Source of the DNA: a phage
Assembly (NCBI GenBank): GCA_012178725.1
Contig: GCA_012178725.1_3030.1
DNA length: 64,000 nucleotides
Reading direction: 5' to 3' (one strand)
The position numbers and the translations under genes were made by a program. The notes below the pieces were generated by a model. That model had not been told where the DNA came from and searched no databases. It saw only the letters and a list, made by a program, of their open reading frames with translations. Positions 3,438 through 56,124 of this stretch are shown here, in pieces. Numbering within the stretch: the first letter of the stretch is position 1; the number at the start of each line of letters is the position of its first letter.

Positions 3438-5495
3438 CTACATTTTGAACTTTTTAGACATTCCGTTGATGTTAACCAAAGAAGCCAAGATTTGAGAAAC
3501 TTCGTTTTCCTCTTCTTTTGATTCTTCTACAAGAAATTGATTAAATCCAGCCATTGGACGAACTTCACCAGTTTCCATTAAATGGTCGCCATCATATACC
3601 GATTCCTCTAATTGTTCAGAAGGAGGAACGATTGTACCTTCGATTAGATACTTGTTATAAGCAGTTTCTTTCATAAAGTACGTACTTACTTTATTAATCT
3701 TCAGTAAAATTCCACGCGGTAGAATAACTTCAGCTTCTGATGGAAATCCTGATAAATGACCTGGAACGATAACTTTGATTCGCTCAGCTCCTTTAATTAC
3801 CATACCCACGCTAGTTTCAGCATCTTCATTAGCATATGTAGAATGACTACCCATATGCATCAAATCTTCTGCGTCAACTGAACCTTCTCCTTCACCAGAA
3901 AATACTGCGCCGGAATCATCTAGAGCCATATAGTTTTTACCATGCTCACCGAAGATATTTGGTTTAAGAGATGTGGATACGAAGTTCTTGAAATAGAACA
4001 TTTTGTTTTCAATGTTATGACGCAAAGTTTTAAAGGTAACTTCTTGTCCGCGATAAAGCGTAGTTCCTGGAGGAAGAACTGAACCTTTAGCGAATGCAGA
4101 ATCCAACGTCTCGATGTGCTTAATAGCTCGTTCCATATATTCTTCACGGGTAGAATCTGGTTTACCCAAAAGGAACGAGTTCATTTCAACATATGAATCT
4201 GCACAATAATCTTCAATTACATCAGATTCGGCCTGAGTCAGTCCTTTTGGAGTTACTTCAGTGCTTGCGTATTCATATGCCTGGGCAGCAGATTCATTAA
4301 TCAATTTATAAATGCCATTCATGACAAATTGAATAATAGCTGTCTTTTCATCTGGCGTAGCTTTAGAACCTTTAACTAAATCATTAATAATTTTCTTAAT
4401 AACATCAAAGCTATTAGAAATATTAATGTCAGCAAGATCGCTTAAAATTTTATCAGTTTTATAATCAAAGAATTCTTTATTCTTTAAATATTCTTGAGAA
4501 CCTTGATATGTTATATCGCTCTGCAACTTGATAGATGGATCACGTAAACGTGCGTGGGCCAATGCAATATGATTTCGGAAGTTTTCTAGTTCATAATCGC
4601 TAGATTTAAAACGAGAAGCACTTCTCATACCACCGATAGCTCCTTTGCTGAAGTTTGAACCAATCTGGATAACGCCAGAGTTCATCGGACCTTCTGCTTT
4701 ATATACCGGAACTTTAGATTCAAACTCTTGATATTTCTTTGCAGCGAAGCTATCACCCTGAAGTGAAGCATCGACAGTAGAATATTGAGCTTGTGCTGCT
4801 AATCGACGACTAATTTTAGTTTTTTGAATAACAGCTTGATCCGTGCGCTTATCATTTTCTAAAGCAATAGAAGCAGCAACAGCGACAGCTTTAGGAACAG
4901 CATTACCTGTTTTAACATCTACATAAACATCACCGACCTTTGATTCAACTTTTGTGAATAACTCAGTTGAAATAGGAGGTACACCTGGAATGTCTTCTAA
5001 ATTGGCATTTTTACGGTAAACCATAATATATGCATATTTCTTATCATAGTCCCAGATTTCCTTTAAAAGAACATATCGACCTGCTCCTTTAGTACGTACT
5101 AAACGGTCAGCAATAACTTGCATTTGACGAGCAGCGCCATTTGTTTTACTCTTTAGTACACGGAATAAGCACGCGTCAATTTTATACTGCTTCATTGTTT
5201 GAAGAGCAGTATCAAAAACAGCATTAATGACGCCAATTGGATTTCCACCCAAGTTTCTAAGCTTAACCAGTGATAATTTCTCGTTGACACCTATCATTAC
5301 GATATGCATCATTTTATCGCCTGGCTTAACGTTTTTATTTGTATCACCACCAGAGGTGTATGTACAAAATCTAAATCCAGGAAGCACGCTTTCTTCGCCG
5401 GCTTGAATAGCAAAAATTTGTGGTATTTTATGCTTAGGATTTAAGTTAACAACCGGCGCCGAAGCGCCGTCAAATAATTCTGTAATAAGTTCCAT
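3438..5495 (-). CDS. Alt-like ADP-ribosyltransferase, paralog of alt
   Basis: 685 aa; N-terminal MELITELFD propeptide-like start; C-terminal R-S-E motifs (LYRGQ, FVSTSL, EAEVILPRG); central region diverged from neighbour. Confidence 0.8.
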   Translation of the reverse strand: MELITELFDGASAPVVNLNPKHKIPQIFAIQAGEESVLPGFRFCTYTSGGDTNKNVKPGDKMMHIVMIGVNEKLSLVKLRNLGGNPIGVINAVFDTALQTMKQYKIDACLFRVLKSKTNGAARQMQVIADRLVRTKGAGRYVLLKEIWDYDKKYAYIMVYRKNANLEDIPGVPPISTELFTKVESKVGDVYVDVKTGNAVPKAVAVAASIALENDKRTDQAVIQKTKISRRLAAQAQYSTVDASLQGDSFAAKKYQEFESKVPVYKAEGPMNSGVIQIGSNFSKGAIGGMRSASRFKSSDYELENFRNHIALAHARLRDPSIKLQSDITYQGSQEYLKNKEFFDYKTDKILSDLADINISNSFDVIKKIINDLVKGSKATPDEKTAIIQFVMNGIYKLINESAAQAYEYASTEVTPKGLTQAESDVIEDYCADSYVEMNSFLLGKPDSTREEYMERAIKHIETLDSAFAKGSVLPPGTTLYRGQEVTFKTLRHNIENKMFYFKNFVSTSLKPNIFGEHGKNYMALDDSGAVFSGEGEGSVDAEDLMHMGSHSTYANEDAETSVGMVIKGAERIKVIVPGHLSGFPSEAEVILPRGILLKINKVSTYFMKETAYNKYLIEGTIVPPSEQLEESVYDGDHLMETGEVRPMAGFNQFLVEESKEEENEVSQILASLVNINGMSKKFKM

Positions 5496-13266: not shown

Positions 13267-13602
13267 TCACTTATAAAGACACGGAATAGCTTTATAATGA
13301 CAAGTAACGAATTTTTGTTTAATTTCTTTTGGCTGCTTAAGACCCAGAGCTACAAAAGGATGCGGAACATTTCGAATTTGACCAACTGGAAGAGAAGTCA
13401 AATCGCCAACTTCGCAAAAACCTTCAGGAACATCAGGACCAACAGAGTGAACTACACACAGTTCAGGAACTTCACCTTGAACACGTTTACCGATAATAAG
13501 TCCTGATTCTGTAACTTCTTCATCACCAGCTTGTGCAGGTTCAGAAACTAAAATCACATATTCACCGACAGCACGAATTGGTAGCTGTTGTACTTCAGAC
13601 AT
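13267..13602 (-). CDS. 31: gp31 co-chaperonin (GroES analogue for capsid folding)
   Basis: 111 aa from second ATG; [15 protein letters not shown] start recognised as T4 gp31. Confidence 0.9.
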
Positions 13603-52993: not shown

Positions 52994-54814
52994 CTACTGG
53001 CTCATCCATTCTTTACGAAGGTCAGCATTATCTCCCATGAGCATTTCAAAAAGCTCTTTCCAGTTCTCAGGAAGTTTAACAACATCATATACTGGATTTT
53101 GAATCATCTCACGATATTCAGATTTTTCCAAAGAGCCAAGTCCTTTAATATAACGGATGCTATGTTTAGGTAGAGCATCTTTGGCACTCTCATATTCAGC
53201 GACTGTATAAAACCATTCTTGTTTTTTACCGACCTGAGCGATGATTACAGGAGTTTTGACAAAGCGAATTCGTCCTTGCTCAAACAGTTCTGGCCAATTA
53301 CTAAAAAATCCAAGAAGAGAAGGATAAATGCTTCCTAGACCATCATGGTCAGCATCAGTCATAATAGCAATATTATGATAATTCAAGTTTTCAGCTTTTT
53401 CACCAAGAACTAGACCAGTGATTGCGCAAATATCAAACAGTTCTTTGTTTTTAAGCATATCTGCATAAGACATACCCCAGCTATTAAGAACTTTACCACG
53501 CAATGGATAACCACCGTGAAGTTCTTTATCACGAACATCAATAAGATATCCGATAGCAGAATCACCCTCAGTCAAGAAAAGAGTAGTGTCAGCATCTTTA
53601 CCGCAAAGATTCGCTTTGATATGTTTATGAACCTTAGCTTTAGAAGCCTTTTTAGCTGCTTTAGTTTCTGCTGCTTTTTCTGCCGCCAATTTACGAGCCA
53701 AAGCAGCTTCAATAATCGGCATTAGAATTGCTTCATTATTTAGAATAGCACGTGAAATCTTTTTAGCATCAAGTTGAATATGACTACGGATTTCACCAAA
53801 TGGAGAAGTCAAACGCTCTTTAGTTTGAGAATCAAATCGCATGTTTTTCATATCACGAACAAACATAACGATAGTCAAACATTCTTTGACACGCGCTTTG
53901 GTTACATCAATTTTGAACTTACGTTTGATTTGTGGAATAAGGTCTTCACAAATATCATCCATAACACAGTCAATGTGATGGCCACCATTCTTAGTATGAA
54001 TGTTATTCACATAAGTTAATTGACGAAAACCATCCGGTGAACGACCAACTGCAATAGAACAATTTTCTTGTTCTTGAACGATAGCATGCTCATCATATTG
54101 GCGTGCATATTTCTTAAAATTACCCTGAACCTTTTTACCATTAAAGGTAAATTGAATATCAGGATAAACAACAGCAAGTGTCTGGAGACGATCTAGTGTA
54201 ATGTCAAGATAAACTTGGGACAGCTCATTAGTTTCAAATGACATAAAATCAGGAATGAAAGTAACACGAGTTCCTTTCCATTTTCCTGGAATAGTTTCCC
54301 ATGATTTATTTTCCATGCCATTTGAACAACGAACTACAATATTATTTTGACCATCGCCAGTTTCACCAACAAACATCACAGAAAAAATGTTAGTTAAACT
54401 AGAACCAACACCGTTCATACCGCCGGTGACGCGTTCTTTATCATCACCGAAGTTACCACCTGCTTTTGGAATAGTCCATGCAGCAACAGGACCAGGAATT
54501 TCTTCACCGGTAGGTGTTTTAACCATCGCTTGTGGAATACCGCGACCGTTATCTTCAACTGTTACTTGATTGTTTTTAATAGTAACGTTAATTTTATTTG
54601 CGAATTTAAACTTAGTACGAATACCTTCATCTACTGAGTTATCGATAATTTCATCAATAAGCTTAACAAGACCAGGTACATACTGAACACTTTCCCATTT
54701 ACCAAACAGAAAGCGCTCATGCATTTCATTAGCAGAAGAACCAATGTACATGCCGCTACGCTTTTTGATATGTTCAATATCGCTCAGAATTTTAATTTCA
54801 TTCTTAATCATCAC
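52994..54814 (-). CDS. 39: DNA topoisomerase II large subunit (GyrB-like), unsplit 39+60 form
   Basis: 606 aa; GHKL ATPase region plus Toprim motifs (EGDSA, MTDADHDG) in one ORF. Confidence 0.9.
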   Translation of the reverse strand: MMIKNEIKILSDIEHIKKRSGMYIGSSANEMHERFLFGKWESVQYVPGLVKLIDEIIDNSVDEGIRTKFKFANKINVTIKNNQVTVEDNGRGIPQAMVKTPTGEEIPGPVAAWTIPKAGGNFGDDKERVTGGMNGVGSSLTNIFSVMFVGETGDGQNNIVVRCSNGMENKSWETIPGKWKGTRVTFIPDFMSFETNELSQVYLDITLDRLQTLAVVYPDIQFTFNGKKVQGNFKKYARQYDEHAIVQEQENCSIAVGRSPDGFRQLTYVNNIHTKNGGHHIDCVMDDICEDLIPQIKRKFKIDVTKARVKECLTIVMFVRDMKNMRFDSQTKERLTSPFGEIRSHIQLDAKKISRAILNNEAILMPIIEAALARKLAAEKAAETKAAKKASKAKVHKHIKANLCGKDADTTLFLTEGDSAIGYLIDVRDKELHGGYPLRGKVLNSWGMSYADMLKNKELFDICAITGLVLGEKAENLNYHNIAIMTDADHDGLGSIYPSLLGFFSNWPELFEQGRIRFVKTPVIIAQVGKKQEWFYTVAEYESAKDALPKHSIRYIKGLGSLEKSEYREMIQNPVYDVVKLPENWKELFEMLMGDNADLRKEWMSQ

Positions 54815-55145: not shown

Positions 55146-55517
55146 TCACTCAAATTTAATGGCTTGAAGAAGACTAATAATTCTCAAGCGACTTCTTTCA
55201 TCTTTAACTGTAAAAGAAAGAGGGTCACCAGATTTCATAGTGATGGTGCATCCAAAATCAAAATCTTCTGTAACTTCTTCGAAGAAGTCAAATTCTTCAT
55301 CATAAATTAGAACATTACTCTGAAAGCTGTGAAGAATTTTTCCATCATTTCCAGATGCTGTACTAATCATTGTAACATTATGACCTTTCATATCTTCAAC
55401 GATAAATTCGCTTGTAGATATTACTGCATTAATAGAACCGTTCCTATGAATAGCAGAAAATAGATATTTCTTTTCTTCACCTTCGCGAACACGATATTTC
55501 TTACCGATTTTAAACAT
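55146..55517 (-). CDS. hypothetical protein
   Basis: 123 aa ORF. Confidence 0.5.
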   Translation of the reverse strand: MFKIGKKYRVREGEEKKYLFSAIHRNGSINAVISTSEFIVEDMKGHNVTMISTASGNDGKILHSFQSNVLIYDEEFDFFEEVTEDFDFGCTITMKSGDPLSFTVKDERSRLRIISLLQAIKFE

Positions 55518-55519
55518 AA

Positions 55520-55696
55520 TTACCCTTTAAGTAAGTCGTAAAATCCACCATTCACATGCTTAGGAGCAGAAGGCCGACGAGTAGACAAACGATGACATTT
55601 AGGGCAAACATCATTTTCTCGTTCAGAAATCTTTTTAATTTTTTCATATTCATGCCCGCAATCTTCGGATTGGCATTTATAATCATACATTGGCAT
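55520..55696 (-). CDS. FmdB-family zinc-ribbon microprotein
   Basis: Manual translation MPMYDYKCQSEDCGHEYEKIKKISERENDVCPKCH... ; matches MP-Y-Y-C..CG..FE ... CP.CG signature. Confidence 0.5.
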   Translation of the reverse strand: MPMYDYKCQSEDCGHEYEKIKKISERENDVCPKCHRLSTRRPSAPKHVNGGFYDLLKG

Positions 55697-55698
55697 AA

Positions 55699-56124
55699 TT
55701 ATTCCTTAAAGTGTGCTTTCAACATCTGATACAAGGACCATGCCTGTTCATTATTTTCAATAGTAACTTTCATGACCGGGAATTCTGTGAAATCTTCTAT
55801 TTGTTCTTGCTCTTTCTCTTCCTGCTCTTGCTCTTCAGCTGCCTGGTATGGATTTTCAACTTCATCAAAGAACCCAGCTTCGCTAGTAGAAAGCCAGATA
55901 AAGTTTTCGTCAAGGATATCACCATGTGTTGCATATCCAACTGTGCCAGTAGATGTCACAATTTTAGTAGGACGACCAAGATGGTCAACATCTAAAATTT
56001 TAAAAGGATGCATACCTAAACGGCGCGCATAGATTCCGTTATCAGTATGATCTTTAATAAAATTTTCTTGAGCTTGTTTATTTTTAAATTGATACCATTT
56101 ATTAACTTCAAATTTAATAGCCAT
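55699..56124 (-). CDS. goF: GoF-like protein (assignment by size and position)
   Basis: 141 aa; position between 39 and motB. Confidence 0.45.

Follow-up and report, generated by a model that had tools for sequence, protein, structure and literature searches.

A 58-codon minus-strand gene of a T4-like phage is assigned as the orthologue of T4 gene 39.2 (NwgI) and encodes a predicted zinc-ribbon protein likely to act on the host GroEL/GroES chaperonin

The product of bacteriophage T4 gene 39.2 was given the name NwgI by Ang and Georgopoulos (Genetics 190:989, 2012; PMID 22234860). The senior author's own account describes Gp39.2 as a 58-amino acid peptide that modulates GroES/GroEL, with genetic and biochemical studies suggesting that it moves GroEL to an open conformation that binds the host or phage GroES co-chaperones; according to the same account, certain groEL mutant hosts that support wild-type T4 fully prevented the growth of a 39.2 deletion (PMC5153855). 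The summary of Gp39.2 given in a later T4 paper matches this description (PMC4396842). Another small phage protein that adapts the host GroEL to phage folding needs is T4 Gp31. The two are unrelated: Gp31 has the Cpn10 fold and takes the place of GroES as the lid that caps GroEL, whereas Gp39.2 is a zinc ribbon reported to alter the conformational equilibrium of GroEL. The third point of comparison is the FmdB family of zinc ribbons, whose nominal regulatory role is unproven, while the phage subgroup has an experimentally supported role related to the chaperonin.

The window analyzed here is a stretch of 64,000 nucleotides of phage DNA (contig GCA_012178725.1_3030.1 of GenBank assembly GCA_012178725.1). 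The ORF listing contains a 58-codon ORF, running from ATG to TAA, at exactly 55520–55696 on the minus strand. Its translation, MPMYDYKCQSEDCGHEYEKIKKISERENDVCPKCHRLSTRRPSAPKHVNGGFYDLLKG, is the same as the peptide quoted in the first-pass annotation, while translation of this interval on the plus strand is broken by a stop codon and differs from the quoted protein. The 1.6 kb surrounding the ORF shared 98.8% identity with Escherichia phage JY01 and over 96% with many T4-like phages, and we assign the window to a Tequatrovirus (T4-like) genome. In annotated relatives, the minus strand carries gene 39 (for the large subunit of topoisomerase II), followed by 39.1, a hypothetical ORF, 39.2, goF, cef and motB, and the gene order around the ORF in the window matches that of phages PP01, T4 and T4T.

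When the 58-residue protein was aligned with Gp39.2 of re-sequenced T4 (MT984581), 47 of the 58 residues (81%) were identical, with no gaps and an E-value of 5e-37. The four cysteines are found at matching positions, and there is no difference over the C-terminal 16 residues. The 11 substitutions, at residues 3, 11, 14, 15, 27, 28, 33, 38, 39, 41 and 42, cluster at 11–15, 27–28, 33 and 38–42. The gene also occupies the same slot as its T4 counterpart, directly downstream of goF and before the gene 39 topoisomerase cluster, in equal orientation. By sequence and position, the ORF at 55520–55696 is thus identified as the orthologue of T4 gene 39.2 (Gp39.2, NwgI). The annotation of this interval as the 39.2 CDS (58 aa plus TAA) draws on the ORF listing, the Pfam and TIGRFAM matches, the identity to T4, the dN/dS ratios and synteny. 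A tblastn search yielded matches to 39.2 in 886 phage records, at least 216 of which encode the identical protein. The gene adjoins the topoisomerase gene also in the genera Krischvirus (ECD7) and Karamvirus (CkP1), where the identity is 44–50%.

The first-pass annotation had presented the ORF as a micro-ORF lying between two annotated ORFs and missed by the ORF track. There is indeed a 58 aa ORF between ORFs at this place, and it is real, on the minus strand, but it is not a new gene. The same ORF is annotated in hundreds of phage genomes, where it is called gp39.2, "zinc ribbon domain protein" or "FmdB-like transcriptional regulator", and the function of its T4 orthologue has been published; as a discovery it carries little weight. 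Its absence from the ORF track is probably an effect of a 60 aa length cutoff. ORF tracks with such a floor lose real, functional phage micro-proteins.

The neighborhood differs from that of T4 in one respect. Between 39.2 and 39.1, the window has an additional ORF of 123 aa (55146–55517, minus strand), which is also present in PP01 and many other relatives, but not in T4. This ORF matches phrog_622 (E = 2e-28), the PHROG to which goF also belongs, but in a pairwise comparison with goF it showed only 21% identity (E = 0.21). We therefore interpret 39.2 as being flanked by two distant paralogues of the goF family. Further along, the large subunit of topoisomerase II is encoded by a single ORF of 606 aa (52994–54814, minus strand). 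In T4, the large subunit is split into gene 39, a mobA remnant and gene 60, which contains a 50-nt translational bypass. The phage thus has neither the split gene nor the bypass of T4.

Against Pfam Zn_ribbon_8 (PF09723), the 39.2 protein scored 45.7 bits, with a cut-off (gathering score) of 34.4, and against NCBIfam TIGR02605 (FmdB family zinc ribbon; CxxC_CxxC_SSSS) it scored 44.9 bits, with a cut-off of 31.3. It also matches PHROG 1076. The protein begins with MPMYDYKC, fitting the MPxYxYxC of the family at the initiator methionine, and has two putative zinc knuckles: the first, C8-QSED-C13 (Cx4C; codons 8–13), at 55658–55675, and the second, C31-PK-C34 (CxxC; codons 31–34), at 55595–55606, both on the minus strand. 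The spacer between C13 and C31 is exactly 17 residues, which is the norm for the family. The start, the 17-residue distance between the knuckles, the small size and the above-threshold scores are those of FmdB proteins; the protein differs from them in the Cx4C first knuckle, which is CxxC in the canonical form, and in having a short GGFY tail instead of a low-complexity Ser/Gly-rich one. The first-pass annotation had named the FmdB-type zinc ribbon correctly, as the two HMMs show, but had given its signature as CxxC...CxxC, which does not fit the first knuckle, C8-x4-C13.

How common this variant is could be seen when 1.84 billion representatives were searched exhaustively with HMMER. This gave 155 relatives at E ≤0.001, nearly all of which are proteins of 50–130 aa. 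Among the 133 small relatives with a scorable four-Cys pattern, the spacing within the first knuckle was two residues in 77, four in 45 and one in nine. Cx4C is therefore a common variant of the family, seen in roughly one of every three relatives obtained. In a family alignment of 107 sequences, C34 was invariant, and M1, P2, Y4, Y6, C8, C13, C31 and P32 were at least 90% conserved. The metal-ligand positions are kept in the relatives of 39.2, except for a Cys-to-His change in one genus, Krischvirus, and we infer that the protein binds zinc through C8, C13, C31 and C34. In gp39.2 of the Krischvirus ECD7 (positions 1801–1974 of the extracted locus), the second metal ligand is a histidine (C-EE-H), which would also allow zinc to be bound, and in this orthologue and several metagenomic relatives, C-x-x-H-G takes the place of the C-x(2-4)-C first knuckle. 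These His-bearing versions would be Cys3His sites.

A structural model of 39.2 was generated with AlphaFold2. With a shallow alignment of seven close relatives, obtained by a word-indexed search, the model was unusable (pLDDT 48.5), and the 107-sequence HMMER alignment was used instead, giving a pLDDT of 83.4 overall and ≈90 for residues 1–40. The predicted structure consists of four short strands, at residues 3–8, 16–20, 28–30 and 37–40. Fold searches with this model gave weak, non-significant matches, every one of them to a generic zinc-ribbon module, among them RPB12, a subunit of RNA polymerase, and RbpA, a protein that binds sigma. A sequence search of the PDB returned no solved relative of 39.2, only a chance match to bL31 (E = 0.78). 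The assignment to the FmdB-type zinc-ribbon family is supported by the two curated HMMs, both above threshold, together with a model whose weak fold matches are to zinc ribbons only.

The C-terminal tail, residues 43–58 (SAPKHVNGGFYDLLKG), which contains the GGFY motif, is encoded together with the stop codon at 55520–55570 (minus strand) and is the part that is identical to T4. AlphaFold confidence was lower here, about 67–70, and the model suggests that the tail is flexible. A GGFY-type motif is kept in relatives with 39–51% identity. Of 145 small proteins representing the family, 43 also have it, and the motif is therefore characteristic of a broad subfamily and did not originate as a novelty of phages.

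The sequence thus fits a protein with an N-terminal zinc ribbon (residues 1–40, with C8, C13, C31 and C34 as ligands) and a conserved, presumably flexible GGFY tail. We consider it highly probable that the ORF is a T4 39.2/NwgI orthologue with this architecture that acts on the host GroEL/GroES. The protein would be translated from an early transcript of the minus strand, shared with goF and cef, and, by orthology with T4, would act on the host chaperonin, moving GroEL toward an open conformation able to bind GroES or the phage's own Gp31. The result would be that GroEL-dependent folding of phage proteins keeps working where the host GroEL is suboptimal. A Gp31, a GroES-like co-chaperonin, is encoded in the window at 13270–13602 on the minus strand (Cpn10, 30.8 bits, with a cut-off of 21.1), and its sequence is 100% identical to the T4 Gp31 probe. 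The presence of Gp31 argues that this phage depends on the host GroEL as T4 does.

By analogy, the copy in the window, 81% identical to T4 Gp39.2, presumably acts on GroEL in the same way. The gene was reportedly first selected by Ang and Georgopoulos from phage RB69, and the homologues from T4, RB43 and RB49 are said to have behaved alike. If this is right, it is very likely that the function is conserved at 81% identity.

The first-pass annotation had placed the gene in the early region, which agrees with T4 RNA-seq data, where the 39.2 mRNA was classed as early (PMC9697503, Table S2); these data are for T4 only. When the window was scanned for MotA-box middle promoters, there were none in the vicinity of 39.2. 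A sigma-70 scan of the same surroundings gave only generic matches, no better than in shuffled sequence, and for this reason no promoter was assigned to the gene.

A wider reading is that the small FmdB/Zn_ribbon_8 proteins of bacteria and phages are generally GroEL modulators and not transcription regulators, the phage 39.2 being a captured, streamlined copy. These numerous proteins share the core MPxYxYxC...CPxC, often with a GxGF/W-Y tail. In that case, the substitutions relative to T4 at residues 11–15, 27–28, 33 and 38–42 would tune the allele in the window to other variants of the host GroEL. We consider this reading improbable.

Another explanation is that 39.2 is a regulator of transcription or nucleic acids, whose zinc ribbon binds host DNA, RNA or RNA polymerase early in infection, as the first-pass annotation had proposed. 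PHROG and RefSeq labels read "FmdB-like transcriptional regulator", the neighbors goF, cef and motB act on RNA or transcription, RPB12 and RbpA are among the weak fold matches mentioned above, and the T4 transcript is early. The label, however, is an unverified name that goes back to a gene-neighborhood inference made in 1996 from a gene next to formamidase, and we know of no experiment on any member of the FmdB family that backs it. The sole experimental work on the 39.2 orthologous group points to GroEL, T4 Gp39.2/NwgI having been characterized as a GroEL/GroES modulator. The widespread label contradicts this evidence and is misleading for the 39.2 group. The proposal of a host nucleic acid or RNA polymerase target thus found no support, and we would give a regulatory function only a very slim chance.

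We place about equally little faith in a third possibility, namely that 39.2 is a small adaptor with a zinc ribbon and that its main natural target is not GroEL but, for instance, another host protein or a defense system. The effect on GroEL would then be secondary and apparent chiefly when the protein is overexpressed or the host is a mutant. The published phenotypes do come from mutant groEL/groES backgrounds, the family occurs widely among bacteria and phages and has been assigned no function, and the substitutions relative to T4 cluster at surface-like positions (11–15, 27–28, 33 and 38–42), as they might in an evolving interface. A search of defense-system models with the 39.2 protein, however, gave no match, and nothing points to another partner, while according to the senior author's account both biochemical and genetic data support the effect on GroEL (PMC5153855). 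Modulation of GroEL/GroES is thus the function that we prefer for 39.2.

The evidence that the ORF is a gene at all is of a different kind. In this AT-rich DNA, a 58-codon open frame is expected by chance at about 1.2% of start positions, and many spurious ORFs of about this size are listed nearby. The length by itself is therefore unremarkable, and the status of 39.2 as a gene rests on other evidence. A Shine–Dalgarno sequence, AAGGA, can be read at 55703–55707 on the minus strand, 6 nt upstream of the ATG and within the final codons of goF, which ends in a TAA at 55699–55701. We infer that it serves as the Shine–Dalgarno of 39.2. The upstream context, ctttaaggaataatt, is kept in close (Tequatrovirus-type) relatives. 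Both junctions of 39.2 with its neighbors have the form TAAttATG, and tight packing of this kind is typical of the early gene clusters of T4.

Selection was analyzed on 19 sequences: the window and the DNA of 18 other distinct orthologues, for which IMG/VR loci and re-sequenced T4 were the sources. Compared with its relatives, 39.2 had a dN/dS of 0.03–0.14 wherever dS was unsaturated, and variable sites were distributed over codon positions 1, 2 and 3 as 11, 7 and 39, respectively, showing that the gene is under strong purifying selection. None of the 19 sequences had a stop in the 39.2 frame, but stops were present in the five remaining frames. Two overlapping ORFs, one of 44 aa on the minus strand and one of 57 aa on the plus strand, were rejected as coding, since their frames have stops in relatives and the pattern of variation fits the 39.2 frame only.

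The 58-codon ORF is thus a real gene. That it might instead have arisen by chance, or be a non-coding spacer separating goF from the gene that follows, with a coincidental likeness to a zinc ribbon, is suggested by its unremarkable length, the similar-sized spurious ORFs nearby and the failure of one T4 proteome study to detect the protein. Conservation and selection already exclude this and leave it practically no probability, given the dN/dS and codon-position pattern, the frame open in all 19 orthologues, two HMM scores above curated cut-offs, the Shine–Dalgarno kept in close relatives, the matches in 886 phage records and the published phenotype of the T4 deletion.

The proteome result itself has to be read with the reference sequence in mind: Gp39.2 is a very small protein, and the search in which it went undetected used a 45 aa reference entry (PMC9697503). 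Both RefSeq NC_000866 and AF158101 annotate T4 39.2 as 45 aa. When the DNA sequences were aligned, the legacy T4 record was found to have an extra T and several other differences, so that the C-terminal GFYDLLKG runs on out of frame. The re-sequenced T4 isolates (T4T, KJ477684-6, MT984581, OL964735 and others), in contrast, all encode an intact 39.2 of 58 aa, in agreement with the "58-amino acid peptide" of the published account (PMC5153855), and they differ from the old reference by ≈4% over 341 bp. Since all re-sequenced isolates are intact and the published peptide has 58 residues, the 45 aa version most probably reflects old sequencing errors in the legacy record, which are probably still spreading into UniProt and proteomics databases. 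With an entry of this kind, a proteomics search can overlook the protein.

The affected legacy stretch is the 39.1-39.2-goF junction. The part of NC_000866.4 that corresponds to 55500–55730 of the window (3560–3900 in the extracted locus) shares only 95.9% identity with each of the re-sequenced T4 isolates. Gene 39.1 also differs in length between the records, with 65 aa in the legacy T4 reference and 86 aa in the re-sequenced ones.

Shortened versions of 39.2 have been deposited for other phages as well. The 47 aa proteins annotated as 39.2 in Shigella phage vB_SsoM_113 and Salmonella phage Manna go into the −1 frame after residue ≈32 (…NVIVCLLVGLLLLSM). These look like frameshift errors of assembly rather than real variants. 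In the record of vB_SsoM_113, full-length 39.2 is matched by tblastn in two separate pieces.
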